Source: Bacilli bacterium
GTDB taxonomy: Bacteria; Bacillota_I; Bacilli_A; RF39; UBA660
Assembly (NCBI GenBank): GCA_036653735.1
Contig: JAVVTI010000002.1
Location: forward strand, 1-60,079
DNA: 60,079 nt
Reading direction: 5' to 3'
In this document: positions 185-54,975 of the stretch, one piece after another
Layout: each line of letters opens with the position of its first letter
How positions within the stretch are numbered: the first letter of the stretch is position 1
The notes under the pieces: model-generated
The model's database searches: none
The model's input: only the letters and a program-made list of their open reading frames with translations
What the model was told of the DNA's origin: nothing
Translations under genes and position numbers: made by a program

Positions 185-565
185 TTAATTATCAGTTTTG
201 AAATCACCACATTGCATATTAACTTTAACTACATTACCATTTGAGAAAACAATGTTGCCAACACAATCATTACCTTTAAAAACTAAATCTTTTAAGTATT
301 CAGCTTTTTCTAACAGCTGAAGTGTTACTTCTCCGGTAAATGGAGCTTTTAGTGCACATTCCTTACCTGGAATAGGATATTCACAGTAGTCCTGGAAATA
401 CAATTCTCCTGCTTTTTTAACAAGATCAACTTGAGTATCAAAAGCCTTTTTTTGTGCTTTATTATATATTTTTAATACATTGGGCACAGCCATCGTAACA
501 ATTATACCTAGAAGAGCTATTACCGCTAATAGTTCTATTAATGTAAAACCTTTTTCTTTTTCCAT
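185..565 (-). CDS. Prepilin-type N-terminal cleavage/methylation domain protein (type IV pilin / ComGC-like pseudopilin)
   Basis: N-terminus MEKEKG|FTLIELLAVIALLGIIV is a class III signal with Glu at +5. A C-terminal Cys pair (C..C) is typical of the pilin D-region. Confidence 0.8.
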   Translation of the reverse strand: MEKEKGFTLIELLAVIALLGIIVTMAVPNVLKIYNKAQKKAFDTQVDLVKKAGELYFQDYCEYPIPGKECALKAPFTGEVTLQLLEKAEYLKDLVFKGNDCVGNIVFSNGNVVKVNMQCGDFKTDN

Positions 566-3000: not shown

Positions 3001-3516
3001 TTATGAGATTTTAATCTTTCCACTAAACGTTTTACCCATATCTGCCCCTTGATTTCCTTCTATTTCTGCGTATGTAACGCTTAATGTATAAGTATGAGTA
3101 ATACCTTTATCTATAGATATATTATTTATAATACTCACATCACTTTGAGATGTAGGTATACTTGTTTTAGTAATATTTGCTCCTGTTTGTGTGCATGTTA
3201 AAGTATAAGTTAATAAATCTTTATTAACTAAAGTATTAACAAGTTCAGTCCATAAAATATTATATGACACTGCCTCATCACCATCGTTTTGAATACTAAA
3301 TGTCTTAGTTTGAGTCCAACCTGGGGATATTTTACTACCATTTATTGCATTAGTATCCATAAATTTAACTTTAAGTTCTTTAAAAGATACATTAATACTA
3401 CTAGTATTATTAATACCTAATATTTCGGTTTTATAAAAAGCATAAGAAAAGCCAATATAACCAAGTAATAAAGAAAATACTATGCCAATAATCAAAATAA
3501 TCTTTATTCTTTTCAT
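3001..3516 (-). CDS. Secreted beta-rich protein with a SipW-type (TasA/camelysin-like) signal peptide
   Basis: The hydrophobic N-terminus is followed by GFSYAFYKTE, which resembles the T-[FY]-A-[YF]-F-[ST]-D-x-E motif of SipW-dependent signals. The C-terminus ..EGNQGADMGKTFSGKIKIS resembles the N-x-x-QG...F-x-F end of TasA/camelysin-family proteins. Motif recall only. Confidence 0.4.
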   Translation of the reverse strand: MKRIKIILIIGIVFSLLLGYIGFSYAFYKTEILGINNTSSINVSFKELKVKFMDTNAINGSKISPGWTQTKTFSIQNDGDEAVSYNILWTELVNTLVNKDLLTYTLTCTQTGANITKTSIPTSQSDVSIINNISIDKGITHTYTLSVTYAEIEGNQGADMGKTFSGKIKIS

Positions 3517-3793: not shown

Positions 3794-4147
3794 TTAATCA
3801 CTATAAAACCTATCTATATCCTTAAACTTAGTAGATTTACTCTCCTTTTCTTTCTTAGAATCATTTCTAAGTCCTGTTAAATCTTCTAAAAGAGAAACAG
3901 CTTTTTGAACAGTACTTAAATTACTTTGTAAATTATCAGGATTAATACCTTTTAATGAATTAATAATATTTTTCATATTAAAACTTGTTTCACTTGTTTC
4001 ACCAAGTAAAGCCCATACTTCAGAATTTTCACCATACATATCATAAGTTTCATATAATTGTTGATACGTATATTTCTTATCTAAGATATTCTTAGCAAAC
4101 TTAGGGTTACTCTTTATAAAAGTTTTAAACTCATCTAACTTACTCAT
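3794..4147 (-). CDS. YlbD-like putative spore coat protein
   Basis: MSKLDEFKTFIKSNPKFAKNI...YQQLYETYDMYGENSEVW resembles B. subtilis YlbD (..VEQFKTFVKKHPKLIKEV..WQEVYENWTVLGEDDEIW). The ATG at 4147 has an AGGAG RBS. Confidence 0.55.
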   Translation of the reverse strand: MSKLDEFKTFIKSNPKFAKNILDKKYTYQQLYETYDMYGENSEVWALLGETSETSFNMKNIINSLKGINPDNLQSNLSTVQKAVSLLEDLTGLRNDSKKEKESKSTKFKDIDRFYSD

Positions 4148-4191
4148 ATATACTCCTATTAACATAATATGCATATATTTATAATATTATC

Positions 4192-6726
4192 TTACAATTT
4201 AAACTCATCAAAGAAATCACTCATAGTTAGATTATCATTTATTTTAGTTTCTTTTAATACTGGATTTTCTTCTTTTACTTTATCATCATTAATAATATTT
4301 TCTTCTTTAGAAGTAATTGTTAATAAAACAGGCTTTTCTATGATATTAATTACATCTTTTTTAGTATATAAAGATCCTACTGATAATAAATCAGATATGA
4401 CAGTATCACTTGCTTTTAATTCATTTATTTCATCACTAACTATATTACAAATACTTTTAGATGAAGAATTAATTACATTTTTAATATAATATTTCTTACT
4501 TTTAGGACTCTTAATTAATAAAGAACCTTTTTTAGCTCTAGTAGTTTTTAATATCTCTATAATTTTAACTCTTTTACATGTATTTTTATCAGTAAAAATA
4601 GTAGCATAATCTTTTAATATATCTATGACAAAAGCACTTACTACAGCATCATCTTTAAGATTCATAAGTTTAACACCACTTGTTCTTAGACCAACAGTTG
4701 GGATTTCCTGTGTACTAAATTTAACAGCGTAACCATTTTTACTTACAGATAGTACTTGATCACCCATATTATCACTTACACTTACTACCTCATCGTTTTC
4801 TTTTAATTTAATACACATAATAGCTTTAGAGTATCTTTGGACTATTAAATCTTTTTGATATATTCTTTTTACCATACCTAGTTTAGTAAATATAGTAATG
4901 TAACTATTATTTTCATTAACTAGAGGCATAGATTTAATTATCTTTTCATTATCACTAATACTTACTATAGAACCAATAAAATCTCCTACATCCTTGTATT
5001 TAGTTTCATTTAAGTTTCTAAGAGGAACATATAAATAATTACCAAGAGAAGTAAATAATACAACTGTATTAACATTATTTAATTTATAAATGCTTTCTAA
5101 GTAATCTCCTTCTTTTAATCCAGTAGATTCTTTTTCATAAGCATTATAACTTTTAAGGGTTACCTTCTTTATATAACCAGCTTTAGAAATACAAACAATA
5201 TAATCATCTTTACTAATCATATCTAACTCATCTATTTCTATAGAAGTTATTTCATCATTAATAATACTTCTTCTTTTAGTTTTAAATTCATTTCTTACTT
5301 CTATTAACTCATTTTTCATTACTTCTTTTAATGCTTCTTCATCATTTAATATATGAGTTAATTCTTTTATTAAAATACATAGTTTATCATACTCTTCTCT
5401 TAATATAGTAACATCTGTATTAGTTAACTTATAAAGTTGCATCATAACAATAGCTTCAGCTTGAATACGTGTAAAATCATAAGTATCTACTAAATTATTA
5501 ATAGCATCACTTTTATCTTTACTTTTTCTTATTAAAGCAACTATTTCATCGAGTATATCCATTGCTCTAATGAAACCTTCTATTATATGTAAACGAGCAC
5601 TAGCATGATCTAAATCAAACTTAGTTCTTTTATGTACTACTTGCTTCTTATGTTCAATAAATGCATCAAGTGCCTCTAAAATACCCAAATACTTTGGTCT
5701 TTTATTAACTATAGCAACCATATTAAAAGAGTAAGTTACTTGCATATCAGTATTCTTAAGTAAATAATTAGTAATAAGTATTGCATTAGCACCCTTTTTA
5801 AGATCTAGAGCTATCCTTAACTCATCATTTTTATCGGATTCATCTCTTACCTCTACTATACCATCTATTTTTTTATTAATACGAATTTCTTCTATTTTCT
5901 TAATTATATTACATTTCAGAGTATCATAAGGAATCTCGGTAATAATAATTTGCTCATTACCTTTATTTTTAACTATTTCAAACTTACTTTTAACAACTAT
6001 TTTACCTCTACCTGTTTTATAAGCTTTTAATATCTCGGATTTACCTTCAATAATACCGCCTGTAGAAAAATCAGGTCCCTTAATAATATTAGTAATAGTT
6101 TCAAAAGAACAATCAGGTTTATCTATTCTTTTAATAGTAGCATTTATTACTTCTTCTAGATTATGAGCAGGTATATTAGTAGCATATCCAGCACTTATAC
6201 CAGATGCTCCATTAACAAGTAAATTAGGAAAGTTAGCTGGAAGTACAGTAGGTTCTTCTTGATCATCATCAAATGTAGGAGCCATATCAACAGTATTTTT
6301 TTCTAAATCTTTTAAAAGAACATTACTTATTTTAGTAAGTCTTGCCTCAGTATAACGCATAGCCGCAGGACCATCTCCATCAATAGAACCATTGTTACCT
6401 TGTATTTCTACTAGGAGTTCTCTTTGTTTCCACTTTTGAGATAAACGAACCATTGCATCATATACAGAAGTATCTCCATGAGGATGATAATTACCTATAA
6501 CATTACCAACAGTTTTAGCACTTTTTTTAGTTTCTCTATCATATGTATTTCTATCTTTATACATAGAAAAAAGTATTCTTCTTTGAACGGGTTTTAAACC
6601 ATCCCTAGCATCAGGGAGTGCTCTATCTTGGATAATATATTTAGAATATCTTCCAAAACGTTCTCCCATAATCTCTTCTAAAGAATATTCATATACTTTT
6701 TCTACTATTGTTTTCTCTTTTTTCAT
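4192..6726 (-). CDS. parC: DNA topoisomerase IV subunit A
   Basis: RALPDARDGLKPVQRRILFSMY and HPHGDTSVYDAMVRLSQ are present, and no GyrA-box (QRRGGKG) is seen in the C-terminal domain. It lies directly downstream of the B subunit. The ATG at 6726 has a GGTGA RBS. Confidence 0.82.
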   Translation of the reverse strand: MKKEKTIVEKVYEYSLEEIMGERFGRYSKYIIQDRALPDARDGLKPVQRRILFSMYKDRNTYDRETKKSAKTVGNVIGNYHPHGDTSVYDAMVRLSQKWKQRELLVEIQGNNGSIDGDGPAAMRYTEARLTKISNVLLKDLEKNTVDMAPTFDDDQEEPTVLPANFPNLLVNGASGISAGYATNIPAHNLEEVINATIKRIDKPDCSFETITNIIKGPDFSTGGIIEGKSEILKAYKTGRGKIVVKSKFEIVKNKGNEQIIITEIPYDTLKCNIIKKIEEIRINKKIDGIVEVRDESDKNDELRIALDLKKGANAILITNYLLKNTDMQVTYSFNMVAIVNKRPKYLGILEALDAFIEHKKQVVHKRTKFDLDHASARLHIIEGFIRAMDILDEIVALIRKSKDKSDAINNLVDTYDFTRIQAEAIVMMQLYKLTNTDVTILREEYDKLCILIKELTHILNDEEALKEVMKNELIEVRNEFKTKRRSIINDEITSIEIDELDMISKDDYIVCISKAGYIKKVTLKSYNAYEKESTGLKEGDYLESIYKLNNVNTVVLFTSLGNYLYVPLRNLNETKYKDVGDFIGSIVSISDNEKIIKSMPLVNENNSYITIFTKLGMVKRIYQKDLIVQRYSKAIMCIKLKENDEVVSVSDNMGDQVLSVSKNGYAVKFSTQEIPTVGLRTSGVKLMNLKDDAVVSAFVIDILKDYATIFTDKNTCKRVKIIEILKTTRAKKGSLLIKSPKSKKYYIKNVINSSSKSICNIVSDEINELKASDTVISDLLSVGSLYTKKDVINIIEKPVLLTITSKEENIINDDKVKEENPVLKETKINDNLTMSDFFDEFKL

Positions 6727-6735
6727 ATATATCAC

Positions 6736-8649
6736 CTACTTCTTTTTCTTAACTTCAAATTCATCTTCTAGTGAAAATTCAACATTTTCTTCTATCCATT
6801 CTTTACGAGGTTCTACTGCATCTCCCATAAGAACATCTACTCTTTTTTCAGCAAGAAGAGCATCATTTATAGCAACTCTTATTATACTTCTTGATTCATT
6901 GGACATAGTAGTTTCCCATAATTGATCAGCATTCATTTCACCTAATCCTTTATATCTTTGTATATTATAGTTTCCTTTATATGTTCTTTTGAAATCATTT
7001 AATTCATCATTAGTATTAAAGTATTTCTTATCTTTACCCATAGTTATTAAATAAAGAGGAGGCATTGCTATATATAACATACCTTGCTCTATTAAGGGTC
7101 TCATAAAACGATAAAAAAATGTAATCAAAAGGCACTGTATATGTGCTCCATCATCATCAGCATCTGTCATAATAATAACTTTACCATAATTACTATCTTC
7201 ATAATTAAAATCTTGACCAACACCTGCATTTATAGCATGAACAATAGTATTAATTTCTTCGTTTTTAAAAAGTTCGACAACAGATGATTTTTCACAGTTA
7301 ATTATTTTACCTCTTAAAGGAAGTATTGCTTGATGCTTTTTATCTCTTCCACTTTTAGCAGTTCCTCCAGCTGAGTTTCCTTCTACAATAAAGAGTTCAT
7401 TCTTCTTATGATCCTTACTTTGAGCTGGTGTAAGTTTACCAATTAATACTCTTTCTTTGTTTAGTTTTCCCTTACCACTTCTAGCTTCTTCTCTTGCTTT
7501 TCTTGATGCTTCTCTTGCATATTTACTCTTTAATGCTTTATCCATAATAGCTTTAGCTGCATTCTTATTCTCTTGTAAATAAAAGGTTAGTTTTTCATAT
7601 ATTAAACTTTCAGTTGCACTTCTTGCACTGGGAGTACCAAGTTTACCTTTAGTTTGTCCTTCAAATTCTAAAATACTTTCTGGTATTTTTAAACTAAGTA
7701 TTGCACTAAGACCCTCTCTTGTATCGTTTCCTTCTATACCATCTTTTCCTTTTAGTAGATTATTAGACTTAATATACTCATTAAAAACTTTAGTTAAGGC
7801 TGCTTTAAAGCCTACCTCATGAGTACCTCCATCAATAGTTTTAACATTATTAACAAATGATATAATTTTTTCACTATATTCATTAGTATACTGTAGAGCA
7901 GCATCAATTATAATACCACCTTTTTCACCATGAATATCAATTACAGGATTAAGTGTCTCTTTACTTTCATTAATTTTTTCTACAAAAGAAACAAGACCAT
8001 TATCATAATGATATATAACTTTTTTATTACTTTCCTCATCTTCTATTTGAGAAGTTAAAGTATTAATAAGAAATGAGCTTTCTTCCAAACGTTCACATAT
8101 TGTAGTAAAACTAAAATAAGTTGAGGTAAATATAGAACTATCAGGCATAAAAGTAATTCTAGTTCCTGTTTTTTTAGTAGTTCCAACTTCTTTTAAATTC
8201 TTATCAAGTTTACCACCATCTTTAAAAGATATTTCATGTATTTTACCATCTCTATATATTACAACCTTCATCCACTGTGAAAGGGCATTAACAACACTTG
8301 CTCCTACCCCATGAAGACCTCCACTTACTTTATATCCATCACTTTCAAACTTACCACCAGCATGAAGCATAGTAAATATAACTTCAGGTGTACTCATTCC
8401 ATTTTCATGCTTACCACATGGAATTCCTCTACCTTCATCCTCAATAGTAATACTCTTATCTTTATTAATACGAACATAAATATTAGTTCCATAACCATTA
8501 ATAACTTCATCAATAGCATTATCTATTATTTCCCATACCAAATGATGAAGTCCTCTTTTATCAGTACTACCTATATACATACCAGGTCTTTTTCTAACTG
8601 CTTCTAAACCTTGTAATATTTTTATTGATTTCTCATTATATGTATTCAT
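6736..8649 (-). CDS. parE: DNA topoisomerase IV subunit B
   Basis: GHKL ATPase and TOPRIM motifs (LEAVRKRPGMYIGS, EGNSAGG, PLRGKIIN, DADDDGAHI). Called parE because of the parE-parC order and the GyrA-box-less partner. Confidence 0.82.
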   Translation of the reverse strand: MNTYNEKSIKILQGLEAVRKRPGMYIGSTDKRGLHHLVWEIIDNAIDEVINGYGTNIYVRINKDKSITIEDEGRGIPCGKHENGMSTPEVIFTMLHAGGKFESDGYKVSGGLHGVGASVVNALSQWMKVVIYRDGKIHEISFKDGGKLDKNLKEVGTTKKTGTRITFMPDSSIFTSTYFSFTTICERLEESSFLINTLTSQIEDEESNKKVIYHYDNGLVSFVEKINESKETLNPVIDIHGEKGGIIIDAALQYTNEYSEKIISFVNNVKTIDGGTHEVGFKAALTKVFNEYIKSNNLLKGKDGIEGNDTREGLSAILSLKIPESILEFEGQTKGKLGTPSARSATESLIYEKLTFYLQENKNAAKAIMDKALKSKYAREASRKAREEARSGKGKLNKERVLIGKLTPAQSKDHKKNELFIVEGNSAGGTAKSGRDKKHQAILPLRGKIINCEKSSVVELFKNEEINTIVHAINAGVGQDFNYEDSNYGKVIIMTDADDDGAHIQCLLITFFYRFMRPLIEQGMLYIAMPPLYLITMGKDKKYFNTNDELNDFKRTYKGNYNIQRYKGLGEMNADQLWETTMSNESRSIIRVAINDALLAEKRVDVLMGDAVEPRKEWIEENVEFSLEDEFEVKKKK

Positions 8650-43078: not shown

Positions 43079-43633
43079 TTAATTCTTAGTTATTTGTAGC
43101 ATATCTACTTCTACTGGAGTCTCTTGTCCAAATAAATCTATAAGTACACTTAACTTCTGATTCTCATCATCTATTGAATCTATTTTACCGTACATTCCTT
43201 TAAATGGTCCATCAATAATACATACTGAATCACCTAAAATAACATTTGTATCAACTACTTTATTTGTACTTTCAACATTTGCTAGTATCTTATCAACTTC
43301 ATGTGGTAAAAGAGGCGTTGGTTTAGCACCCTTTCCACTAGAACCGATAAATCCAGTAACTCCTGGAGTATTACGTACTACATACCATGCTTCATCAGAC
43401 ATAATCATTTCCACTAATACATAACCAGGAAACATTAGTTTAACTTTTTCCTTCTTAACACCATCTTTAATTTCTATTTCTGTTTCAACAGGTAAAATAA
43501 CTCTAAAAATATTATTTTCCATACCCATACTTTCAGTACGCATATCTAAATTTTCTTTTACTTTACTCTCATGACCAGAATATGTATTAACTACATACCA
43601 TAATTTCTGATTTTCTTCTTTTCTCTCGTCCAT
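43079..43633 (-). CDS. nusG: Transcription termination/antitermination factor NusG
   Basis: WYVVNTYSGHESKVKENL (NGN domain) and a KOW motif (GDSVCIIDGPFKGMYGKI). Confidence 0.95.
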   Translation of the reverse strand: MDERKEENQKLWYVVNTYSGHESKVKENLDMRTESMGMENNIFRVILPVETEIEIKDGVKKEKVKLMFPGYVLVEMIMSDEAWYVVRNTPGVTGFIGSSGKGAKPTPLLPHEVDKILANVESTNKVVDTNVILGDSVCIIDGPFKGMYGKIDSIDDENQKLSVLIDLFGQETPVEVDMLQITKN

Positions 43634-43812
43634 TATTTAATAAGCCCCCTTAAAAATGCAAATGAAACATCAAGTCCAAAAAAGAATAATGCAAAAAATA
43701 CTATCATTGCTATACATATAGCAGAATATTTAGCTAATTCCTTTCCTTTAGGAAAATGACTCTTCTTTACTTCGCTAACTACACCAGCAAAGAATTCCTT
43801 AATTTTTCTCAT
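43633..43812 (-). CDS. secE: Preprotein translocase subunit SecE
   Basis: 59 aa with a single TM helix: MRKIKEFFAGVVSEVKKSHFPKGKEL.. The GAAGGAG RBS precedes 43812. It lies upstream of nusG. Confidence 0.8.
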   Translation of the reverse strand: MRKIKEFFAGVVSEVKKSHFPKGKELAKYSAICIAMIVFFALFFFGLDVSFAFLRGLIK

Positions 43813-43932
43813 CTCTACTCCTTCAAAAAAAAACACTTTTGTTTCGTGTATATATACTATATCATAAAATTATATGCATTACAACTATTTTTAATTGAAA
43901 ATTTTAAATAATAAGTTTATATAATATATATT

Positions 43933-45361: not shown

Positions 45362-48300
45362 TTAATTTACCTTTCTCATCATAACAGTGTAATTAAATTC
45401 ATCTTCTATTTCTTTAATAAAATCATATTTTTGATTATTATCAAATGTAGCAAGTAGTTCTTTTTCTATTTCCTTTTTATATGAATTTATTATATCACAT
45501 AAATCTTTATTATTAGATATTATATTAATATATATTCTATCTTCTACATTAAATAGTGCTTCTTTTCTTAGAAGCTGGCATGTTCTTACTATTTCTCTAA
45601 AGACTCCTTCACGCTCTAGCTCTTTAGTAATATGAGTATCTATTACTACAAATTTATTATTATTTTCCTGTGCATCAAAACCTTCTTTAGAAGATAAATT
45701 GAGTTCTACCATATCATTAGTAATAAAGAATGGCACATTATTAATAATGATTTTCTTATTAACAACATCTTCTATGTTCATATTTTTAATAGTTTTAGCA
45801 AAATCATTTATAGATGAACCTAATATAGGACCACACTTCTTATAATTAGGTTTTAATTCTATATTCATATAAATACTTAGGTCATCTTCAAAACATACTG
45901 TTTTAACATTAAGTTCTTCATTAATAATACTAGAAAAATCATTTAAAAGTTCTTTACTCTTACCATCTAATATAATCTTACTAATAGGTTGTCTTATTTT
46001 AATCTTCGCACTTTCTCTACAAGCTCTACCTAGTACAACAATATTTTTTACTTCTTCCATCTCTTCTTCAAGTTTATTATTTATAAATTCTTCATTACAC
46101 ACTGGAAAATCACTTAAATGAACACTTTCTTCGCCAGTTAAATTAATAAATATTTCATCTGCTATAAATGATGAAACGGGTGCTATTAATTTACATATAC
46201 CACAAAGAACTTCATATGTTACTTTATAAACTGCATTTTTATTCATAGATGACGATGTAGCCCAAAATCTTTTTCTATTTCTTCTTATATACCAGTTAGA
46301 CAAATCATCAATAACAAAAGATGATATACTTTTTACTACTCTATTTAAATCATATTCATCATAAGCCTTAGTAACATAATCTACCAAATTATTATATTTA
46401 CTCATTATCCATAAATCTATTAATTCATAATCTTTTTTAGTAGCTAATAGAAATTCTTTATCTAAATTATCAGCATTAGCATACATTTCAAAAAAACTAT
46501 ATGTATTTTTAAGACTACCAAAAAATTTACTTGTTACATCTTTAAGGCCATCTTCATCAAATTTAATAGGAAGCCAAACTGGTGAAATATACGGTAAATA
46601 CCATCTTATAGCATCTGAACCATACTTTTCGATTAGACCAAATGGCTCTATAGAATTTCCTTTACTTTTGTGCATCTTTTTACCATATTTATCTAGAAGT
46701 AATTCATTAACAAGAACATTTTTATAAGGGCTCTTTCCTGTTAAAAATACACTTATTACCATAAGAGAATAGAACCACCCTCTTGTTTGATCAATTCCCT
46801 CTGCGATAAAATCAGCTGGAAACTGACTATCAAAAAGTTTTTTATTCTCAAATGGATAATGATATTGACTAAATGGCATAGATCCACTATCAAACCAACA
46901 ATCAATTACGCTTTTTACACGTGTCATCTTTTTACCACATTTATCACAAATAATACAAATGTCATCTACAAATGGGCGATGAAGATCTATATCTTCATCA
47001 TTTATTTCTTTAATAGAAAGTTCTTTAAGTTCTTTGATAGAACCAATCATATGATCATGACCACATGAGCATCTCCATAAAGGAAGAGGTGTACCCCAGT
47101 ATCTATTACGAGAAATAGCCCAATCATTTAAGTTTTCAAGCCAGTTGCCAAATCTCTTTTCACCAACATATGATGGATACCAAGATACTGTCTTATTAGC
47201 TTTTATAATTTTATTTTTTATCTTTGTAATTTCTAGATAGAAAGATGGTTTACTACAGTATATTAAAGGACTGTTACATCTCCAACAATGGGGATAATTA
47301 TGTAGCATCTTTTGTTTCTTAAATAATAAGTTATTTTCTTTTAAATATTCAATTACTTTTATATCCGCATCAAATACAAGCATATCTTTCCAAGGACCTT
47401 CTGCATATAAACCCTTTTCATTAACTGGATTTAATAGAGGCAGATTATATTTTCTTCCTACTTTAGAATCATCTTCACCAAAACAAGGTGCAATATGTAC
47501 TATTCCAGTTCCACTATCTACTGTTACATATGAATCACAACATATGAAGAATCCTTTTTTATCTACAGGAAGAAAATCTAAAAGTCTATCATACTCTTTA
47601 TATTCAAGAGTTTTACCTAGAAATTCACTTTTCACTTCATATTCATCAAATAAAGTGCTTACTAATTTCTTGGCAACTATATAAGAATTATTATGAGATT
47701 CTACCTTTACATATACTTCATTTGGATTAACACATAACCCAGTATTTGCTATTAATGTCCATGGGGTAGTAGTCCATACCAGTAAATATGTATTTTCATT
47801 TTTAAGTTTAAATGGTACTGTTACAGTAGTAACAGTAATCTCTTTATATCCCTGAGCTACTTCATGAGAAGCAAGACCTGTTCCACATCTAGGACAATAA
47901 GGTAATATCTTTTGGCCCTCATAGAATAAGCCTTCATCAAAAAACTTCTTAAGTATATACCACTCTGTTTCTATATACTTATTATCATATGTAATATACT
48001 TGTTTTCCATATCAATAAATTGACCCATTTCTGTAGTAAGTTTCTTAAATGCTTCCTCATTCTTCCAGACGTTTTCTTTACATTTTATATTAAACTTATC
48101 TATACCATACTTTTCAATATCACTTTTATCACTAAAACCTAATTCTTTTTCTACTTGTACCTCAACTGGAAGACCATGAGTATCCCAACCTATCTTTCTA
48201 AGTACTTTGTTACCTTTCATAGTTCTATATTTACAAAAACTATCTTTTAACATTTTAGCTAGCATATGATGAAGACCAGGATAGCCATTAGCTGTTGCAG

Positions 48301-48436
48301 GACCATCATAAAAAACAAACATCTTCTTATCATCTTTAGTATCTATGCTCTTTTGAAAAATATTATTTTCCTCCCAATATAGACTCATGTCCTTTTCATT
48401 TTCACTTACTTTTTTATTATTTAACTTCTTATACAT
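45362..48436 (-). CDS. ileS: Isoleucine--tRNA ligase, type 2 (eukaryote/archaeal-like long form)
   Basis: 1024 aa. PATANGYPGLHHMLAKMLKD (HIGH-type), KMHKSKGN (KMSKS), WTTTPWTL (editing domain). No C-terminal Zn-finger of the type-1 form was seen. Confidence 0.9.
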   Translation of the reverse strand: MYKKLNNKKVSENEKDMSLYWEENNIFQKSIDTKDDKKMFVFYDGPATANGYPGLHHMLAKMLKDSFCKYRTMKGNKVLRKIGWDTHGLPVEVQVEKELGFSDKSDIEKYGIDKFNIKCKENVWKNEEAFKKLTTEMGQFIDMENKYITYDNKYIETEWYILKKFFDEGLFYEGQKILPYCPRCGTGLASHEVAQGYKEITVTTVTVPFKLKNENTYLLVWTTTPWTLIANTGLCVNPNEVYVKVESHNNSYIVAKKLVSTLFDEYEVKSEFLGKTLEYKEYDRLLDFLPVDKKGFFICCDSYVTVDSGTGIVHIAPCFGEDDSKVGRKYNLPLLNPVNEKGLYAEGPWKDMLVFDADIKVIEYLKENNLLFKKQKMLHNYPHCWRCNSPLIYCSKPSFYLEITKIKNKIIKANKTVSWYPSYVGEKRFGNWLENLNDWAISRNRYWGTPLPLWRCSCGHDHMIGSIKELKELSIKEINDEDIDLHRPFVDDICIICDKCGKKMTRVKSVIDCWFDSGSMPFSQYHYPFENKKLFDSQFPADFIAEGIDQTRGWFYSLMVISVFLTGKSPYKNVLVNELLLDKYGKKMHKSKGNSIEPFGLIEKYGSDAIRWYLPYISPVWLPIKFDEDGLKDVTSKFFGSLKNTYSFFEMYANADNLDKEFLLATKKDYELIDLWIMSKYNNLVDYVTKAYDEYDLNRVVKSISSFVIDDLSNWYIRRNRKRFWATSSSMNKNAVYKVTYEVLCGICKLIAPVSSFIADEIFINLTGEESVHLSDFPVCNEEFINNKLEEEMEEVKNIVVLGRACRESAKIKIRQPISKIILDGKSKELLNDFSSIINEELNVKTVCFEDDLSIYMNIELKPNYKKCGPILGSSINDFAKTIKNMNIEDVVNKKIIINNVPFFITNDMVELNLSSKEGFDAQENNNKFVVIDTHITKELEREGVFREIVRTCQLLRKEALFNVEDRIYINIISNNKDLCDIINSYKKEIEKELLATFDNNQKYDFIKEIEDEFNYTVMMRKVN

Positions 48437-48650
48437 TTGTATTTCCTTTCTTAAAAAATAAAAAAGTTATCATAAGGAGCATATTATGCGGTACCATCCT
48501 TAAAATAACTTAATTTTTTATAACGCATACCTGCGGTTTATTTAACATAAACATCATCAAGAGTGATACATATATATTTTATTATTAGTTTACACCAAAC
48601 ACTAACTCTCTTAAATATAAAAACATATAACGTCTCTTTCATTTGATTTA
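48437..48650 (-). promoter_or_regulatory. T-box riboswitch leader of ileS (candidate specifier AUC = Ile)
   Basis: Minus strand carries an AGAGAG bulge plus a TGGTGTAAA distal loop. ATC-A lies at 48565-48567 next to CTCTT, which can pair with AAGAG. The T-box sequence GGATGGTACCGC is at 48488-48499. A terminator helix (gttat..aagga / tcctt..ataac) followed by ttttttatttttt spans 48453-48509. Confidence 0.8.
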
Positions 48651-48655
48651 AATAA

Positions 48656-48684
48656 ATTATATATTATAAAATACACATTGTCAA
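48656..48684 (-). promoter_or_regulatory. Consensus sigma-A promoter for the ileS T-box leader
   Basis: Minus strand reads TTGACA (48684-48679), a 17-nt spacer, then TATAAT (48661-48656). Confidence 0.65.
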
Positions 48685-48719
48685 ATCATACCTAATTTAT
48701 TTTTAATAATTTTTAGTCT

Positions 48720-49079
48720 CTAATCACAAACTAAAGTAGGTTTAAATTCATAATTAGGTTTACCATCTTCTAAAGGTTTTTTAACTATTAATTCTATTTT
48801 AGTTTTAGTTGTATCACAACTCTTATTAGTATTAGGATTAACAAACATAGAAGTATCATGTCCTATTCTTTCTTTCATTTCCTTAATAGTAGTAGAATAA
48901 ACACCTTCTTTAAGGGTAGTCTTACCTGTTATATAACTATCATAAATCAAAGTTCCATAAGAAACTAGTTTATCTTTAAGCTCATCATACTTAAAACTTT
49001 TATCAGTTTCCTTAGAACATCCTCCTAAAAACATTAAGCAAACAAATACCAAAACAAATATTACTTTACTTTCCTTCAT
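48720..49079 (-). CDS. Lipoprotein, translationally coupled to the upstream Gly/Cys-repeat protein gene
   Basis: Lipobox FLGGC. The ATG lies inside the last 14 nt of the upstream ORF (ATGAAGGAAAGTAA). A C-terminal Cys pair (..KSCD...LVCD) weakly resembles the pilin-like ORFs. Confidence 0.65.
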   Translation of the reverse strand: MKESKVIFVLVFVCLMFLGGCSKETDKSFKYDELKDKLVSYGTLIYDSYITGKTTLKEGVYSTTIKEMKERIGHDTSMFVNPNTNKSCDTTKTKIELIVKKPLEDGKPNYEFKPTLVCD

Positions 49080-50898
49080 AACTTATTTCCACCTTTCCTT
49101 TTCCTGAATTTTTAGTTAGTGATGTATCTGCAAAAATTATATCAGCACCTTTTACGGTAGTTCCTCCATTTCCTGGTTTACCTGGTGTAGTACATGTACT
49201 ACAATAACAGCTATAATATCCACCATAGGAAGCACATCCTCCCCCACAAGTTGAACAACCACATGAGTATGTTGGTGCCCATCCATTACATCCTCCTCCA
49301 CATGTTTGACAGCTTTGGACAACAGGACTATAGGACTTACATCCTCCTCCACATGTTTGGCAGTAACAATAATATGTTGGATATCGACTTACACAAGTTT
49401 TTACTAGGCCGTGGCAACCTCCAGCCGCATCTATTCTTGAGCAAGTAGTGTTCCATGAAGCACAGCCTCCGCCGCATGTAGAACAATTGCATTTATAAGT
49501 TGAATTCCAAGCAACACATCCACCTCCAGAACTAGTACAATTACAGTCATAAGTTGATGCATACGAGTTACAACCACCTCCACATGTAGAACAATTGCAA
49601 GAGTAGGTATCATTATATGAAATACATCCCCCACCACATGTAGAACAATTACATTCGTAATTATAATCAGGGCTAGAACCACCGCCTCCACCATTTATGC
49701 CATTAGAGCCTGCTCCAGCACCAGAACTTGTTCCTCCAAGTGCATCTCCAGAACCACCAATGCCTCCATTAGGACCTCCACCACCTCCTGCAATTTTAGC
49801 AAGTTCTATATTATTTAATTTAATAGTAGTAGCTCCACCTCCATAATATTTACCAGAGCCTCCACCACCAGTTCCATCTTGCCCACCAATCAATAATTTT
49901 AATTCTTGTCCTTTAGATAGGTAAATAGAAAATCCCTTTGTATCACCTGCTCCACCATTACCAGCTCCAGCAGATCCTGAAGCAATTATATTATAATGAC
50001 CACTATAAGGTACTACGTAGGTTTGCTCACTTGAAGAATATTCAAGCTTTTTCTTAAGTATTACTTGACACTGAGTGTCAGCATTTACATTACTTACTGT
50101 TATTGTATTACCTTCTAAAGTTATTGCTTTCTTATCATTACATTTTATATATGGATTATCTACATTATAAGAATTATCTATTACTTTAAAATCCTTAAAT
50201 ACAGCATTTTTATTAGGCTCTACTATAATCTCTTTTACATCAGTAGTAGCTCCTATAATATTTAAAGAAACTTTATAATTTTTAATTGTAAAGAATTCCA
50301 AACTACATTCAAGTGGATAAGAAGTGATTTTAGCAGATAAAGTATTATTTATATACTCAACACTTCCTCCATTGCAGGAAGAAAGCAATTCATAATTACC
50401 AGTTTTAGGAATGTTAGTTACCAAGGATCCGTCTAATCTAATTGAATTAAAAATAATATCAGCTTGATCATCAAATAAATAAGGATCTTTTGGAGTACCA
50501 CTTCCTTTTACCTTAGAATCTCTATTAACAAATGCTGTTTGTCTACCAAAAGAATTACTATTAATATCCTTATTTCTTACTATATTACCTGAAGCATCAA
50601 TAAAATAAACTTTATTATCAATAGCCTTGTCATTAAAAAGTGACTCTCGCTCATTGTACAAATAAGTACTAATATTATTACCACTTATTAAAAGAGTTTT
50701 ATCATATTCATCTTTAGTAAGTAAACTTGTATTACTATTAAAATTAGCTCCTTTATTATAAATATTATTATAATATGTATTTAAAACAGTATCTTTATTC
50801 TTATATGTAAATCCAGTTGATGCATAAACATAAGTACTCATAAAAAACATAGTAATAATCATTAAAATATAGGTGAATGTTTTTCTATTCTTATTCAT
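49066..50898 (-). CDS. Secreted multi-domain protein: signal peptide, beta-rich region, poly-Gly (Gly_rich/ALK-GRD-like) domain and about 8 tandem Cys-rich CxCxxCGGGC repeats
   Basis: The ATG at 50898 has a GGAG RBS, and the protein starts MNKNRKTFTYILMIITMFFMSTYVYA|S. The Gly-rich core runs YVVPYSGHYNIIASGSAGAGNGG...LLIGGQDGTGGGGSG..YGGGATT...AGGGGG. The repeats are read directly. Confidence 0.75.
   Translation of the reverse strand: MNKNRKTFTYILMIITMFFMSTYVYASTGFTYKNKDTVLNTYYNNIYNKGANFNSNTSLLTKDEYDKTLLISGNNISTYLYNERESLFNDKAIDNKVYFIDASGNIVRNKDINSNSFGRQTAFVNRDSKVKGSGTPKDPYLFDDQADIIFNSIRLDGSLVTNIPKTGNYELLSSCNGGSVEYINNTLSAKITSYPLECSLEFFTIKNYKVSLNIIGATTDVKEIIVEPNKNAVFKDFKVIDNSYNVDNPYIKCNDKKAITLEGNTITVSNVNADTQCQVILKKKLEYSSSEQTYVVPYSGHYNIIASGSAGAGNGGAGDTKGFSIYLSKGQELKLLIGGQDGTGGGGSGKYYGGGATTIKLNNIELAKIAGGGGGPNGGIGGSGDALGGTSSGAGAGSNGINGGGGGSSPDYNYECNCSTCGGGCISYNDTYSCNCSTCGGGCNSYASTYDCNCTSSGGGCVAWNSTYKCNCSTCGGGCASWNTTCSRIDAAGGCHGLVKTCVSRYPTYYCYCQTCGGGCKSYSPVVQSCQTCGGGCNGWAPTYSCGCSTCGGGCASYGGYYSCYCSTCTTPGKPGNGGTTVKGADIIFADTSLTKNSGKGKVEISYEGK
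49192..49653 (-). repeat. Coding tandem repeat with a period of about 48 nt (16 aa) and 8 units, some degenerate
   Basis: Units are YxCNCSTCGGGCxSYxxT (x2), ..CNCTSSGGGC.., ..CNCSTCGGGC.., one irregular spacer unit, then ..CYCQTCGGGC.., CQTCGGGC, CGCSTCGGGC and CYCSTC. A conserved core aattgttctacatg recurs in three units. Confidence 0.9.
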
Positions 50899-50987
50899 AT
50901 ATTTACTCCTATTTATATTATAAAATATATTTATGTTTTTTTCAATCATTATTTGATTTTTACTAATAAAAAATCATATGTTTTATT

Positions 50988-51347
50988 ATGAGTAGTGAAC
51001 TAAAGAAACTTTCTTTTGAAAAAATAATATGGGTAGTTTTTATAATTATAAGTTTACTTAATATTTATGGAACTTCTTTATTAGAAGAGTATGCTAAAAC
51101 AAAGGATTCAACTGATAAACTAACTGCTAAGAAGATTTTTATATTTACAGTTATAGTATCCTTTTTAATATATGCATACTTTGTATATAGAAATTATAAA
51201 CAATTAAAAGAAAACGAAAGAAATAATAAAGATACTAAACTTTATTATATAAGATTTATTGGAAGTTTACTAATAATAGCAGGGGTATTATTTATATTAT
51301 ATTTTCAAATATTTGAACCGGATTTAACAGGTTCACCAGCTATATAA
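50988..51347 (+). CDS. Small 3-TM membrane protein, function unknown
   Basis: Three hydrophobic helices. Divergent from the Gly/Cys-repeat gene. Confidence 0.5.
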   Translation: MSSELKKLSFEKIIWVVFIIISLLNIYGTSLLEEYAKTKDSTDKLTAKKIFIFTVIVSFLIYAYFVYRNYKQLKENERNNKDTKLYYIRFIGSLLIIAGVLFILYFQIFEPDLTGSPAI

Positions 51348-51357
51348 TAGTGCTTTT

Positions 51358-51963
51358 CTATCTAATACATACTTTATATTTATTCTTAATTCTTACTAAA
51401 GTATTTTCTATAGATCTTTTATCTTTATTAAGAATTTCAGCTATCTCAGTATTTGTCATATTTTTAAGTTTTAAATTAAACACTTCTTGTTCATAAGCTG
51501 TTAAACTCTTTTTAAGTTCATCTATTAGATACGTTGCATATTCTTTTTCTTCTACTTTTTTAGATGGATCACTATTATTATCATTAAATACTTCATAAAG
51601 AGATACATTATCATCAAGTATATTATTGTCTAATGAGAGTGATTCATTTAAAAATTTATTTTTATTTCTTTTAGCACTTCTTATATATTGTCTAATATTT
51701 GTTTCTATACAAACGGATGCATAAGTATAAAAAGTAACATTCTTCTTTTTATCAAAAGATTTCATAGCACTTATTAATCCAATAGTACCTTCTTGTATTA
51801 AATCACTTTTATCAACACCACAAGAAGAAGCATAAAGCATATTATATGAAGATATCTTATCTATTAGGGGTTTATATTTACTGATTAATAAAGTCTTAGA
51901 ATCTTCATTACCCTCATGTACTAAAAATAAACATTCATTATCATTTATATTCTTATAATCCAT
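51358..51963 (-). CDS. sigH: Sporulation/transition-state sigma factor SigH-like
   Basis: DLIQEGTIGLISAMKSFDKKKNVTFYTYASVCIETNIRQYIRSAKRNKNKFLNESLSLD aligns with B. subtilis SigH (DIVQEGMIGLYKSIRDFKEDKLTSFKAFAELCITRQIITAIKTATRQKHIPLNSYASLD). It lies downstream of rlmB, as in Bacillus. Confidence 0.75.
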   Translation of the reverse strand: MDYKNINDNECLFLVHEGNEDSKTLLISKYKPLIDKISSYNMLYASSCGVDKSDLIQEGTIGLISAMKSFDKKKNVTFYTYASVCIETNIRQYIRSAKRNKNKFLNESLSLDNNILDDNVSLYEVFNDNNSDPSKKVEEKEYATYLIDELKKSLTAYEQEVFNLKLKNMTNTEIAEILNKDKRSIENTLVRIKNKYKVCIR

Positions 51964-53245: not shown

Positions 53246-54145
53246 TTACTTACCTCCAGATATATCTTTTTTAGCACTTGTTGCAGCAATTGCTCCATCA
53301 GATGCTGCAGTTACTATTTGGTATAGTCCTTTATCAATAGCATCTCCACAAGCATAAATACCTTTAACACTTGTTCTCATACTATCAGATACTTCTATAT
53401 AACCTTTATCATTTATAATATCTATTTTATTTAAAAAATCAGTCATAGGCTCAAAACCTATATATACAAAAATAGCTTTTACATCTATTTCTCTTTTATT
53501 ATTTAGTACAACAGAACTAATTTTATCATTTAAGAGATTAACTGTTTCAATATCAAAAGGCTTGATAATTTCAATATTCTTACACGCTTTAGCATTATTA
53601 ATAAGTATTTCATCTGCTCTTAATGTATCATTTCTATTAATTATATATACTTTACTACATATATTAGCTAGGTATACTCCTTCTTCAAAAGCAGAATTTC
53701 CTCCACCTATTACTGCTACTGGTTTATTCTTATAAAGAGCAGCATCACATATAGCACAGTAACTTATTCCTTTACCAGTTAAATTAAATTTCTTTTCTAT
53801 ATTAGGCTTTTTCTTTTGTCTTCCAGTACATATTATAATAGTTTTAGTTTCATAAGTACTATTAACTGTTTTAACAATTTTTTTACTCTTAAGATTCTCT
53901 ATATCTATTACTTCTTCTATTTTATATTCTATTTCTTCATTTAAAATATGTTCAAACATTTTATATGCTAAATCAGGTCCACTTATATTATCGTATCCAA
54001 TAAAATTATCAACTATATTAGTAGAGTTAATAAGACCACCTGGGGCACTCTTTTCCAAACATAAAACTTTAAGACCACTTCTTTTTGCATATACTGCAGC
54101 ACTCATTCCAGCTGGTCCCATTCCAATTATTATACAATCATACAT
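53246..54145 (-). CDS. trxB: Thioredoxin reductase-family flavoprotein
   Basis: IIGMGPAGMSAA (FAD motif), CAIC redox-active dithiol, GGGNSAFEE. 299 aa. Confidence 0.85.
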   Translation of the reverse strand: MYDCIIIGMGPAGMSAAVYAKRSGLKVLCLEKSAPGGLINSTNIVDNFIGYDNISGPDLAYKMFEHILNEEIEYKIEEVIDIENLKSKKIVKTVNSTYETKTIIICTGRQKKKPNIEKKFNLTGKGISYCAICDAALYKNKPVAVIGGGNSAFEEGVYLANICSKVYIINRNDTLRADEILINNAKACKNIEIIKPFDIETVNLLNDKISSVVLNNKREIDVKAIFVYIGFEPMTDFLNKIDIINDKGYIEVSDSMRTSVKGIYACGDAIDKGLYQIVTAASDGAIAATSAKKDISGGK

Positions 54146-54159
54146 AAATATTTCTCCCT

Positions 54160-54975
54160 TTAAAAGTTTTTAACTTTTTCCTTATCCTTAGTATTATATA
54201 AATCATTAAGTGCTGGTTTTTTAGATTGTATCATAATAAGTATAAAACCAGCAAAGAATAATATAATACTAACTACTTGTGCTATTTTAAAACTACCTAA
54301 CATAAGACTATCAGTTCTTAAGCTTTCTATTACAAATCTACCTACTGAGTACCACATTAAATATGTTCCTACTTGTTGACCAAGTCTTATATATTTGTAA
54401 TGCCTAATAGTTAATATGAATATAGCACCTAAAACACACCATAAACTTTCAAAGTAAAAGGTAGGAACTCGGTATAATCCATCAATAAGCATTCCATTAA
54501 TTACAGCACTGGGTATAAATAACTTATGAAGTGTTTCAAGTGAAGTAACAGGTCCATAGGCTTCACTATTAAAGAAATTACCCCATCTACCTATTGCTTG
54601 AGCAATAAGAACAAAAGGTACTGCTACATCTAGTACTCTTAATACACTTACTTTATACTTTTTACAATATATTAATATAGTAAAGAATCCAAAGATTAAT
54701 CCTCCATGCATAGCAAGTCCACCATGCCATACTTTAAGTATCTCTATAGGATTAGCAGCATAGTATTCCCACTGAAAGGCAACATAATATAACCTAGCTC
54801 CTAAGAAACCAAATATAACACACCAAAATATTAAATTAACCATAAATGTCTTATCAATACCAAACTTATAGGATTCTTTAACAATAAAAATACTTGCTAA
54901 AATAATGCCTATTATTATAAAGACACTATACCAAGTTATATTAAAATATGATGTACTAATTATATTAGGATTCAT
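54160..54975 (-). CDS. lgt: Prolipoprotein diacylglyceryl transferase
   Basis: GARLYYV, HGGLIFG and GRWGNFFNSEAYG motifs in a polytopic protein. Confidence 0.9.
   Translation of the reverse strand: MNPNIISTSYFNITWYSVFIIIGIILASIFIVKESYKFGIDKTFMVNLIFWCVIFGFLGARLYYVAFQWEYYAANPIEILKVWHGGLAMHGGLIFGFFTILIYCKKYKVSVLRVLDVAVPFVLIAQAIGRWGNFFNSEAYGPVTSLETLHKLFIPSAVINGMLIDGLYRVPTFYFESLWCVLGAIFILTIRHYKYIRLGQQVGTYLMWYSVGRFVIESLRTDSLMLGSFKIAQVVSIILFFAGFILIMIQSKKPALNDLYNTKDKEKVKNF

Follow-up and report, generated by a model that had tools for sequence, protein, structure and literature searches.

What kind of surface structure is built by a protein that carries 32 cysteines within 154 residues in the midst of glycine runs, and what is the role of the small lipoprotein encoded directly behind it? 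These questions are raised by two overlapping genes in contig JAVVTI010000002.1 (GenBank assembly GCA_036653735.1) of an uncultured bacterium of the Bacilli (RF39; UBA660). The stretch of this contig that we analyzed, 60,079 nucleotides (nt) in length, is referred to here as the window. The first gene (49066..50898; like all features of the pair described below, on the minus strand) is an intact open reading frame (ORF) for a 610-amino-acid (aa) protein, which we call the main protein. The second gene (48720..49079) encodes a 119-aa lipoprotein with a signal peptide at aa 1 to 20 and a lipobox cysteine at position 21. The same main gene is present in a strain that is approximately 99% identical in DNA (locus L023). 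We explain the pair, with moderate confidence, as a conserved cassette for ligand binding or adhesion at the cell surface, in which an exported glycine-rich domain (GRD) bearing a disulfide-bonded hairpin insert works together with the lipoprotein.

The evidence that the glycine-rich part of the main protein is a domain of the type found in the receptor kinases ALK and LTK (PF12810, ALK_LTK_GRD, formerly Gly_rich) is indirect and comes from homologues, from fold comparison, and from a sequence profile. The first part of the domain, with tumor necrosis factor (TNF)-like strands and Gly-rich motifs, spans aa 286 to 413 (49660..50043). The last part, TTPGKPGNGG...GKGKVEISYEGK, spans aa 570 to 610 (49069..49191) and is present in all homologues. 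The Gly runs of the domain are present and nearly invariant across the family alignment. PF12810 matched six of eight homologues at an E value of <1 (best, 1.2e-8), three of them above the gathering score, namely, P0003 (26.4 bits), P0004 (35.7 bits), and P0006 (28.8 bits); the main protein itself falls under the gathering threshold of 24.5 bits. Two of these homologues are clearly related to the main protein over nearly its whole length, since P0003 and P0004 align with 31 to 33% identity across 98% of the query (E = 4.7e-84 and 6.1e-74), the value for P0003 being 33%.

Structure comparison gave the same result. An AlphaFold2 (AF2) model of the whole main protein, built from an eight-sequence alignment, had a mean predicted local distance difference test (pLDDT) score of 41.9 and was confident only at about aa 270 to 375 and 595 to 610, with pLDDT values of 70 to 83 at about aa 270 to 370 and 78 for the final strand. 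Residues 375 to 578 remained below a pLDDT of 50, and the Cys region scored about 22. When the PDB was searched with this model by Foldseek, the 21 best matches were chains of ALK/LTK GRD or TG domains. These were the only matches with E values of 0.001 or less (5e-5 to 3e-4, probability 1.0), and the alignments covered 117 to 155 columns at 21 to 28% identity. A profile of 30 family GRDs from which the Cys insert had been excised (A3) was equally selective. In the whole PDB, it matched ALK chains only, with E = 2.8e-6 for Caenorhabditis elegans SCD-2 (7LIR) and about 0.04 for human ALK, and it aligned the terminal "...GNGkvkIsy" of the family with "GHGEVNIKHY" of ALK. Among the predicted viral structures of BFVD, those matching the AF2 model were phage proteins labeled "glycine-rich domain," "minor tail," or "tail fiber." A likeness to the Gly_rich family and to the ALK domain had been proposed in a preliminary description of this locus, which regarded the absence of a PF12810 match as grounds for abandoning it. 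The main protein indeed lacks such a match, but the likeness is upheld by three independent lines, that is, the PF12810 matches of homologues, Foldseek, and the profile. We regard the homology of the domain as shown.

The cysteine-rich stretch (aa 414 to 569; 156 residues) lies inside this domain. The PF12810 alignment of the homologues covers profile positions 7 to about 176 (of 243) and ends where the Cys region begins, and the 41-residue tail that follows the insert, TTPGKPGNGG...KVEISYEGK, is conserved family-wide. Because the match ends at the Cys segment and the conserved last strands come after it, the repeats interrupt the domain between two Gly-rich motifs. They are not a C-terminal fusion, as they had first been described, since 41 conserved domain residues follow them.

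The insert is 20% cysteine and has no hydrophobic core. Its remainder consists chiefly of Gly, Ser, Thr, and Tyr, with almost no aliphatic residues, and the 156 residues include only one His, three Asp, and one Glu. The count of 32 cysteines in 154 residues (first to last Cys, aa 416 to 569) was confirmed, as were the consensus and the irregular unit CSRIDAAGGCHGLVKTCVSRYPT given in the preliminary description. The unit spacings of 18, 18, 18, 41, 17, and 18, however, give a repeat period of 18 residues and not of 16; the earlier consensus itself has 18 positions. What had been counted as about eight tandem repeats are seven full or near-full units and an invariant terminal half unit. We labeled the cysteines of a unit a-b-c-d (C-x-C-x2-C-x3-C) and counted units inward from both ends of the insert. 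Four 18-aa units of the type Y-x-C-N-C-S-T-C-G-G-G-C-x-S-[YW]-x-x-T (49444..49659), with the Cys patterns abcd, abcd, ab-d, and abcd, make up the ascending arm. The irregular "tip" segment CSRIDAAGGCHGLVKTCVSRYPT follows (49375..49443); it has three cysteines, and several charged residues occur here and nowhere else in the insert. The descending arm (49192..49374) reads abcd, -bcd, abcd, and abc-, the last being the terminal half unit, YSCYCSTC.

Consistent with the preliminary description, which could not assign the Cys module to a family, no named family in Pfam, NCBIfam, or PHROG covered it. Tandem Repeats Finder detected no tandem repeat in the Cys region at the DNA level, and where one residue recurs in different units, the codon agrees in only 53% of cases. 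They are therefore old repeats that have been maintained at the protein level. A modification of the Ser-, Thr-, and Cys-rich repeats of the kind made on lanthipeptides and other ribosomally synthesized and posttranslationally modified peptides was considered and rejected: no modification enzymes are encoded near any locus, and the product is an exported protein of 610 aa.

Are these cysteines joined in disulfides, or do they bind metal? In 49 representatives with a complete GRD, at least eight cysteines, and less than 50% pairwise identity, the number of Cys residues in GRD plus insert was even in 47 (binomial P = 2e-12) and equal to 2 modulo 4 in 16. Proteins with the same repeat type as the window, referred to here as window-type members, had 32, 46, 20, 18, 26, 26, 28, 12, and 24 cysteines, with one odd exception, which was encoded on a 1.9-kb contig. 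Even counts that are not multiples of four fit complete intramolecular disulfide pairing and not a set of independent Cys4 metal sites. From this counting, rather than from chemistry, we infer with fair strength that the insert is held together entirely by disulfides.

Alternatively, the CxCxxCGGGC units could be Cys4 or Cys3 sites for Zn, Cu, Cd, or Fe-S, as in metallothioneins or the variant-specific surface proteins (VSPs) of Giardia, and the protein would then sequester or sense metals at the cell surface. We regard this explanation as improbable. Each 18-aa unit does contain four cysteines at the CxC and CxxC spacings of metallothioneins and zinc knuckles, but the invariant terminal unit has only three. 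Although 31 of the 47 even counts are multiples of 4, the 16 representatives at 2 modulo 4 (among the window-type members, those with 46, 18, and 26 cysteines) do not conform to this rule. The zinc motif of DnaJ is CxxCxGxG, and CxxCGGG resembles it; no metallothionein or zinc finger family, however, matched even at an E value of 10 or less, and the insert is nearly devoid of His, Asp, and Glu. Extracellular thiols could remain reduced in a probable anaerobe, yet single cysteines are always lost together with one in the mirror unit, as described below, and this is what would be expected of a lost disulfide, not of metal sites that are independent of one another. Cysteine parity thus disfavors the metal-sequestering role that had been listed in the preliminary description; of the roles listed there, "disulfide-crosslinked" and "adhesin" provide the best fit.

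The position of the insert within a folded domain requires that its two ends come back together, and the pattern of repeat units indicates how this might be achieved. The main protein has four ascending and four descending units around the irregular three-Cys segment. Ascending and descending units were equal in number in 11 of 14 window-type members (4/4 in the window and 5/5, 2/2, or 1/1 elsewhere), and the parser returned unequal arms in the other three (3/2, 3/2, and 4/5). Two elements do not vary, the first unit (abcd) and the half unit that ends the insert (abc-). The tip differs among family members in both length and sequence, and its Cys count is odd in 13 of the 14 members. In every case seen, the loss of Cys a or c from a unit was matched by the complementary loss in its mirror unit: ab-d with -bcd in the window, in P0009, and at L011, and -bcd with ab-d in P0006 and at L013. 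Uncompensated losses of Cys a or c were not seen among the 14 window-type members. By our rough estimate, the chance of three or four such independent events is about 1e-4 or less. Complementary losses in mirror units point to a-c' disulfides between the mirror units of an antiparallel hairpin.

A second repeat type shows a similar symmetry. In proteins with GxNTC repeats, as many copies precede the largest gap as follow it in 17 of 18 cases (7 of 8 when only proteins with more than two copies are considered), and in P0053 the order of module types is visibly palindromic. From these patterns in the sequences, we infer with fair strength that the insert is a hairpin stalk whose length changes by pairs of units. 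Bonds of the kinds a-c', c-a', b-b', and d(i)-d'(i+1), if all were formed, would account both for the missing d of the terminal unit and for the odd Cys count of the tip; this scheme is speculation. Tentatively, and with more doubt than confidence, we suggest that the insert might be an undescribed architecture, a "cystine-ladder hairpin," in which a-c', c-a', and probably b-b' and d-d' disulfides between the arms would hold a hypervariable tip outside the polyglycine lattice of a recognition module paired with a lipoprotein. Such a module would represent a new class in bacteria, carried at the surface on type IV pili or on the cell itself.

A profile of the family was run exhaustively with HMMER against 1.84 billion cluster representatives, of which 6806 matched at an E value of 1e-3 or less, 517 at 1e-10 or less, and 59 at 1e-30 or less. 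At least 10 Cys per 100 aa were present in 61 of the 156 relatives listed. The Cys-rich stretch occupies one and the same site in each of the 16 Cys-rich members examined, though the repeat types differ; at least four types occur at this one site, including CNCSTCGGGCxSYxxTY, NCSSCYxGxNTC.../CKTGxNTCxYGCD, and SCGCxTYxSCxxS. The first of these, the type in the window, was found in only about a dozen representatives, with one to five unit pairs. Members of the family are also encoded on contigs from human gut metagenomes, and the source annotations of homologues are "hypothetical protein," with a single instance of "general secretion pathway protein G."

Comparison with the strain at L023 showed where the main protein differs between two close strains. 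All seven amino acid changes and a 5-aa indel are in the GRD, while the first 310 codons contain four synonymous changes and no amino acid change. Between 3001..4183 of L023 and 49715..50898 of the window, the changes fall within approximately 70 GRD codons, where 12 substitutions in 210 nt compare with about 0.3% elsewhere. The hot spot in the GRD is due to diversifying selection or to recombination. Together with the varying type and number of repeats, these changes fit a recognition surface under diversifying pressure.

The same variation is open to another explanation, namely, that the protein has no ligand and is a protease-resistant, fast-varying coat or spacer that serves in antigenic variation or phage evasion, like the VSPs of Giardia or the variable lipoproteins of mycoplasmas, with the GRD as a mere scaffold. 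We consider this explanation unlikely, although it deserves some weight. The several repeat types and copy numbers at one site, the paralogues in tandem (L019 and L021) or in a single metagenome-assembled genome (MAG; L012, L013, and L015), the concentration of strain-level changes in the GRD, and the gut habitat would all be expected of a variable coat. The invariant first unit, the terminal half unit, and the mirror pairing point instead to a defined architecture and not to a loose spacer, and the scaffold domain binds a ligand in both settings where it has been characterized, ALK and phage fibers. A variable coat also overlaps with a ligand-binding cassette and does not exclude it.

Further features of the family were noted in this survey. 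The tandem paralogues lie at 2160..5950 of L019 and 4001..7741 of L021, and three copies (L012, L013, and L015) occur in one MAG; tandem and same-MAG paralogues differ in the type of Cys insert and in the tip, as expected of a diversifying gene family. Giant proteins of 4,000 to 7,000 aa, for example, P0011 (7069 aa), P0026 (6659 aa), P0033, P0058, and P0081, match the family profile in up to nine stretches, mainly in the GRD and the region before it. The GRD class is therefore also present in very large surface proteins. The window-type motif occurs in about 8 of 185,579 species-representative genomes, all of them uncultured MAGs, with the labels Bacilli, Mycoplasmatota, Tenericutes, "Clostridium sp.," and, in one case, Muribaculaceae; the last looks like a binning or labeling problem. 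In L023, a 100-N scaffold gap (4185..4283) takes the place of the entire Cys-repeat region, the protein is deposited as "partial," and the strain was rejected as a source of copy number variation. Assemblers evidently fail on the Cys segment, and the family is probably undercounted in MAG catalogues. The only complete chromosome in the set, L008 (CP091739.1, 1.53 Mb), goes out of frame within the Cys repeats (5980..7060; ...CGGGCKHILQNIAVTVKDVGADV...), and this break reflects either a pseudogene with a frameshift or an error in the long-read consensus.

How does the protein reach the surface? The main protein begins with a Sec-type signal peptide at aa 1 to 26 (50821..50898; MNKNRK, a hydrophobic core, and VYA|S), which could be read from the sequence. 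This agrees with the preliminary description of the product as an exported Gly-rich and Cys-repeat protein. Its N terminus, RKT-FTYILMI, has neither Gly at -1 nor Glu5 and so is not a prepilin (class III) signal, and PF07963 did not match the main protein. The N-terminal region that follows (aa 27 to 285; 259 aa, four Cys; 50044..50820) is homologous to the N-terminal parts of P0003 and P0004. It is beta-rich from about aa 98, with DSSP-assigned strands across aa 98 to 290 of the AF2 model at pLDDT 50 to 76, and it matched no named family in Pfam apart from a weak match to DUF7451 (E = 0.014). At the C terminus, reading of the sequence revealed no recognizable LPXTG-type sorting motif, and no family of cell-wall-binding domains in Pfam or NCBIfam matched the main protein.

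Relatives of the main protein are frequently tied to type IV filaments. The PF07963 prepilin motif is present in five of eight close homologues, and a prepilin-like N terminus was found by regular expression in 43 of the 156 listed relatives. Prepilin-type members consist of a pilin module, often immunoglobulin-like domains, and then the GRD; in the main protein and in the P0003 group, the pilin module gives way to an ordinary signal peptide. Two pilin-like genes are present in the window itself (185..565 and 2303..2980, both on the minus strand; PF07963, E = 8.8e-8 and 2.8e-5), which suggests that the organism makes a type 4 filament. A pilin gene is found immediately upstream of the cassette at L022 and L005, accompanied at L022 by a T2SSE ATPase gene. 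The pilin-like genes of the window are scattered among housekeeping genes (der/engA-like GTPase and gyrA/gyrB-like), and beside them is a 171-aa membrane-anchored, beta-rich ORF without a family (3001..3516, minus strand).

These export signals bear on a further explanation, that the main protein is a fiber of the spore surface (coat or exosporium), cross-linked by intermolecular cystines like CotY/ExsY or CdeC and, given the adjacent sigH-like gene, expressed during sporulation. The protein is suitably rich in Cys, Gly, and Tyr, and there are sporulation genes in the vicinity, with YlbD_coat in the window and Spo0A, GerA, and Cse60 near homologues. Coat and exosporium proteins, however, are made in the cytoplasm of the mother cell and are not known to have export signals. 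Here, by contrast, the main protein begins with a Sec signal, prepilin signals are common among its homologues, and the second gene encodes a lipoprotein. The gene does adjoin a sigH-like gene, but this adjacency is not conserved, the homologues lying beside ribosomal, proS, ftsY, or murJ genes. Furthermore, even Cys counts fit intramolecular pairing, and no coat or exosporium family in Pfam or NCBIfam was matched. We give the spore fiber very little credence, and the exosporium or spore coat role that had been among the early suggestions is disfavored by the signal peptide and prepilin signals. The YlbD_coat homologue of the window (3794..4174, minus strand) points to a spore-former.

The second gene of the pair is conserved with the first. 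Homologues of the lipoprotein, found by tblastn in the homologue loci, are 29 to 43% identical to it and directly adjoin a GRD gene in at least 12 loci, in one or two copies and usually downstream, with a spacing of -1 to +11 nt. The pairing extends to GRD genes of other repeat types, at L022 and, more weakly, at L021. These comparisons directly support the conservation of the cassette. The signal sequence of the lipoprotein, MKESKVIFVLVFVCLMFLGG|C, likewise identified by reading the sequence, ends in the lipobox FLGG|C. The lipobox Cys does not vary in the alignment of the lipoprotein family, apart from two members with a transmembrane anchor. Cys88 and Cys118 are invariant in the homologues. 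Lgt (PF01790, E = 1.2e-66) is encoded a few kilobases from the cassette (54160..54975, minus strand). A single-sequence AF2 model of the lipoprotein (pLDDT 62.9) consists of one helix and several strands or a small sheet. A search of an index of 5.8 billion proteins with the lipoprotein returned only itself.

Some partners differ from the lipoprotein of the window. Those at L003 (11873..12304), L011, L013, and L015 have a transmembrane anchor instead of a lipobox and/or a CxC-rich linker next to the anchor, and the linkers (CKCECKC, CNCNCE, KECPTCECP, and KECPKCEECKSCE) echo the "CNC" of the repeat unit. Such CxC linkers may be sites of contact or disulfide exchange with the main protein. A few kilobases from the cassette is also a gene for a thioredoxin-reductase-like flavoprotein (53246..54145, minus strand). 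The idea that the lipoprotein is a lipid-anchored pilin head domain, based on a shared "...L..L...G.....NP.T....C" motif, was rejected as unsupported, since hhalign against the pilin modules gave a probability of 1.9% and there was no fold match.

The genomic setting indicates that the pair is an independent unit. In the window, genes for a SpoU methylase and a sigH-like sigma factor are upstream and ileS is downstream; the preliminary description had placed the locus between sigH and ileS. The cassette does not occupy the rpmG-secE site, as had been supposed there, because a secE-like ORF (43633..43836) is still found beside nusG and the homologues have other neighbors. These include a ribosomal protein operon, ftsY, proS, and murJ and differ from locus to locus; the gene pair is therefore the unit, and its position by sigH and ileS is incidental. 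A divergent 119-aa ORF (50988..51347, plus strand) with several predicted transmembrane segments and weak, subthreshold matches to membrane families is conserved in L023 and is absent beside the cassette in other loci.

A Shine-Dalgarno sequence, AGGAG (50906..50910), is 7 nt 5' of the ATG at 50898, and a promoter-like site, TTGAAA-17-TATAAT (50917..50945), matches 11 of 12 consensus positions; this is a consensus match only, as promoter-like sites are not more numerous in the region than in shuffled controls. An alternative ATG at 50949 has no ribosome-binding site, and the longer reading of the main gene is unlikely. The lipoprotein ORF begins 14 nt ahead of the stop codon of the main gene, so that the two coding sequences overlap at 49066..49079. 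This overlap indicates cotranscription and bears out the tight coupling proposed in the preliminary description; the 1:1 expression proposed there is not supported, as an overlap gives no stoichiometry. Between the lipoprotein stop codon and ileS is a perfect TTGACA-17-TATAAT (48656..48684, minus strand), which is probably the ileS promoter; the cassette would then be a separate transcription unit. A scan of 48300..51400 against Rfam found no family at the gathering threshold, including no T-box ahead of ileS.

A sharp rise in GC content at this locus had also been pointed out in the preliminary description. It is present, with GC fractions of 0.39 to 0.41 over the main gene against a background of about 0.25, but it is an effect of amino acid composition. 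The fractions at codon positions 1, 2, and 3 of the main gene are 0.44, 0.64, and 0.15, and the third-position value (GC3) equals the background and is within or at the range of neighboring genes such as ileS and rpoB (0.10 to 0.15). The spike arises because Gly and Cys codons raise GC at positions 1 and 2 only. An origin by horizontal transfer, considered as the cause of the spike, was rejected because GC3 is at background.

Composition also bears on the possibility that the pair encodes a receptor-binding protein of phage type, domesticated or cryptic, together with the chaperone for its assembly, and is left from a prophage or belongs to a tailocin-like particle. GRD-type domains are common in phage tail and fiber proteins, PHROG families match homologues, and the order of the two genes is that of Pam3 gp24 and gp25, a GRD fiber gene followed by a small helper gene. 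Nevertheless, we found no relative of the family among 2.9 million viral contigs; the neighbors at every locus are housekeeping genes, with no phage structural or lysis genes nearby; and the GC3 of the gene matches the host genome. The products also carry Sec, prepilin, and lipoprotein signals, which phage virion proteins are not known to have. We therefore think it highly improbable that the cassette is a phage remnant.

Taken together with the results above, the explanation that we prefer, the ligand-binding or adhesin cassette, could work as follows. The cassette is conserved in small-genome, low-GC, uncultured gut Bacilli and would encode a pair of surface proteins. The main protein carries a signal for export by the Sec pathway, and its C-terminal half is a domain of the TNF-like and polyglycine kind, as in the ligand-binding GRD of ALK/LTK and in phage fiber tips. 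The loop between two Gly-rich motifs has been expanded into the 156-residue insert of 18-residue Cys4 units, of which the four ascending would pair antiparallel with the four descending to form a rigid, two-armed stalk. This stalk would hold the short variable tip (CSRIDAAGGCHGLVKTC...) at a distance from the domain. Ligand contact may take place at the tip, perhaps with the Gly-rich face, by analogy with the hypervariable distal loops of the gp38 and gp24 phage adhesins. In many relatives, the same module is grafted on a type IV pilin and would be displayed on the filament, a Sec signal replacing the pilin here. The lipoprotein would be anchored in the membrane, would contain a disulfide (two of its cysteines being invariant), and would be produced along with the main protein. 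It most likely binds the main protein outside the membrane, where it might retain it at the surface and/or assist its folding or oxidation; this is the weakest step of the proposal.

Several observations weigh against this explanation. Searches of Pfam and NCBIfam with the whole main protein gave no match to any family, PF12810 included (Pfam, E ≤ 1), nor did searches of Pfam at E ≤ 10 with the Gly-rich segment alone or with the insert excised. Neither the polyglycine-II lattice nor the stalk is seen directly in the AF2 model. Cysteine parity speaks for pairing but not for particular pairs, and the partners of b and d are guesses. Module order was also examined for a palindrome by correlating the ranks of k-mers between the two halves of the insert; the outcome was mixed, with rho below zero for no more than 14 of 43 rows, and many of the rows come from near-identical members of clusters. 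An extracytoplasmic disulfide oxidase was not found in the 60-kb window, and the host bacteria are probably anaerobes. As for the lipoprotein, it has no detectable relative in Pfam, NCBIfam, PHROGs, or the PDB, where its profile matched signal peptides only; a Foldseek search with its model gave no fold match (best E = 0.16); and its role is deduced from gene adjacency alone.

The domain class and the idea of modular pilins are already known. The Cys-repeat hairpin insert, the occurrence of several repeat types at one site, and the partnership with a lipoprotein appear to be undescribed, and limited full-text literature searches found no description of the insert, its repeat types, or the lipoprotein partner. 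Animal receptor kinases are the known setting of the ALK/LTK GRD, to which structures of a few phage fibers can be added; the relatives of the domain in cellular bacteria are annotated only as "hypothetical" or "glycine-rich domain" proteins. The locus shows that a clade of uncultured gut Bacilli uses the GRD as a scaffold for a large, modular, probably disulfide-rich insert, often mounted on a pilin and always with a small lipoprotein as partner, and it makes the cassette a candidate adhesin or receptor-recognition system in little-known, small-genome bacteria of the human gut. Should the product prove to be no more than a variable coat protein, the interest of the finding would be modest. 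If the hairpin ladder is real, it would be a new and simple principle for a rigid, protease-resistant stalk that is adjustable in length and needs no hydrophobic core, and a candidate scaffold for engineering. The cystine-ladder module would then be a cellular counterpart of the receptor-binding tips of phages and a bacterial analogue of the stalk and knob of certain antibodies. The hairpin model predicts Cys pairs that are testable by disulfide mapping.

The architecture invites comparison with four kinds of known systems. Disulfide-stapled and stalk-and-knob proteins, such as the beta-helical antifreeze proteins of beetles, the CxxC repeats of Giardia VSPs, and the ultralong CDR-H3 of bovine antibodies, resemble the insert. 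The bovine CDR-H3 is a two-stranded stalk that presents a variable tip, and disulfide-stapled repeat proteins likewise consist of short, Cys-dense, hydrophobic-poor repeats with regular disulfides. There is no sequence or profile similarity to any of them, and the unit here is an 18-aa C-x-C-x2-C-x3-C repeat inside a polyglycine domain. Modular type IV pilins, as described in PMC8179133, have a binding module grafted on the pilin for display and are carriers of adhesins, examples being Streptococcus sanguinis PilB with a vWA module and PilC with a lectin module. Many members of the family described here are likewise a pilin with a C-terminal binding module. The main protein, however, has a Sec signal and not a class III signal, the cassette genes are outside pilus operons, and a module of GRD and Cys insert is not among the architectures quoted from that source.

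The receptor-binding tips of phages are a third case. Cyanophage Pam3 gp24 has a TNF-like and a glycine-rich domain with a hypervariable distal tip, and the fiber requires a chaperone, which is encoded by the adjacent gene; in both Pam3 gp24 and gp38 of Salmonella phage S16, a conserved Gly-rich stem carries hypervariable distal loops that bind receptors (PMC9608196). Pam3 gp24/gp25 (PDB 7YFW) and S16 gp38 (PDB 6F45) share with the cassette a glycine-rich scaffold with hypervariable loops and a small helper gene directly downstream. Beyond this plan, the domain class alone is shared. The bacterial cassette has a cellular context and export signals, and the direct Foldseek match to 7YFW was weak (E = 0.6). 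The phage tips use several short loops, while the bacterial family uses one very large disulfide-rich repeat hairpin, and the gp25/Tfa chaperones have no similarity to the bacterial lipoprotein. The fourth system is the GRD of ALK/LTK (PF12810; PDB 7LIR, 7LRZ, and 7NX1, among others), although the main protein is more divergent than the ALK/LTK hidden Markov model of Pfam detects. The domains begin in the same way (Y-x-V-P-x-x-G-x-Y ... G-A-x-G-G), have TNF-like strands interleaved with Gly runs, and close with a G-x-G-x-V-x-I strand. In ALK, this domain belongs to a receptor kinase and is free of a Cys insert, whereas the bacterial version is part of a secreted or pilin-anchored protein and carries 50 to 290 aa of Cys-rich repeats at about profile position 176 of 243.

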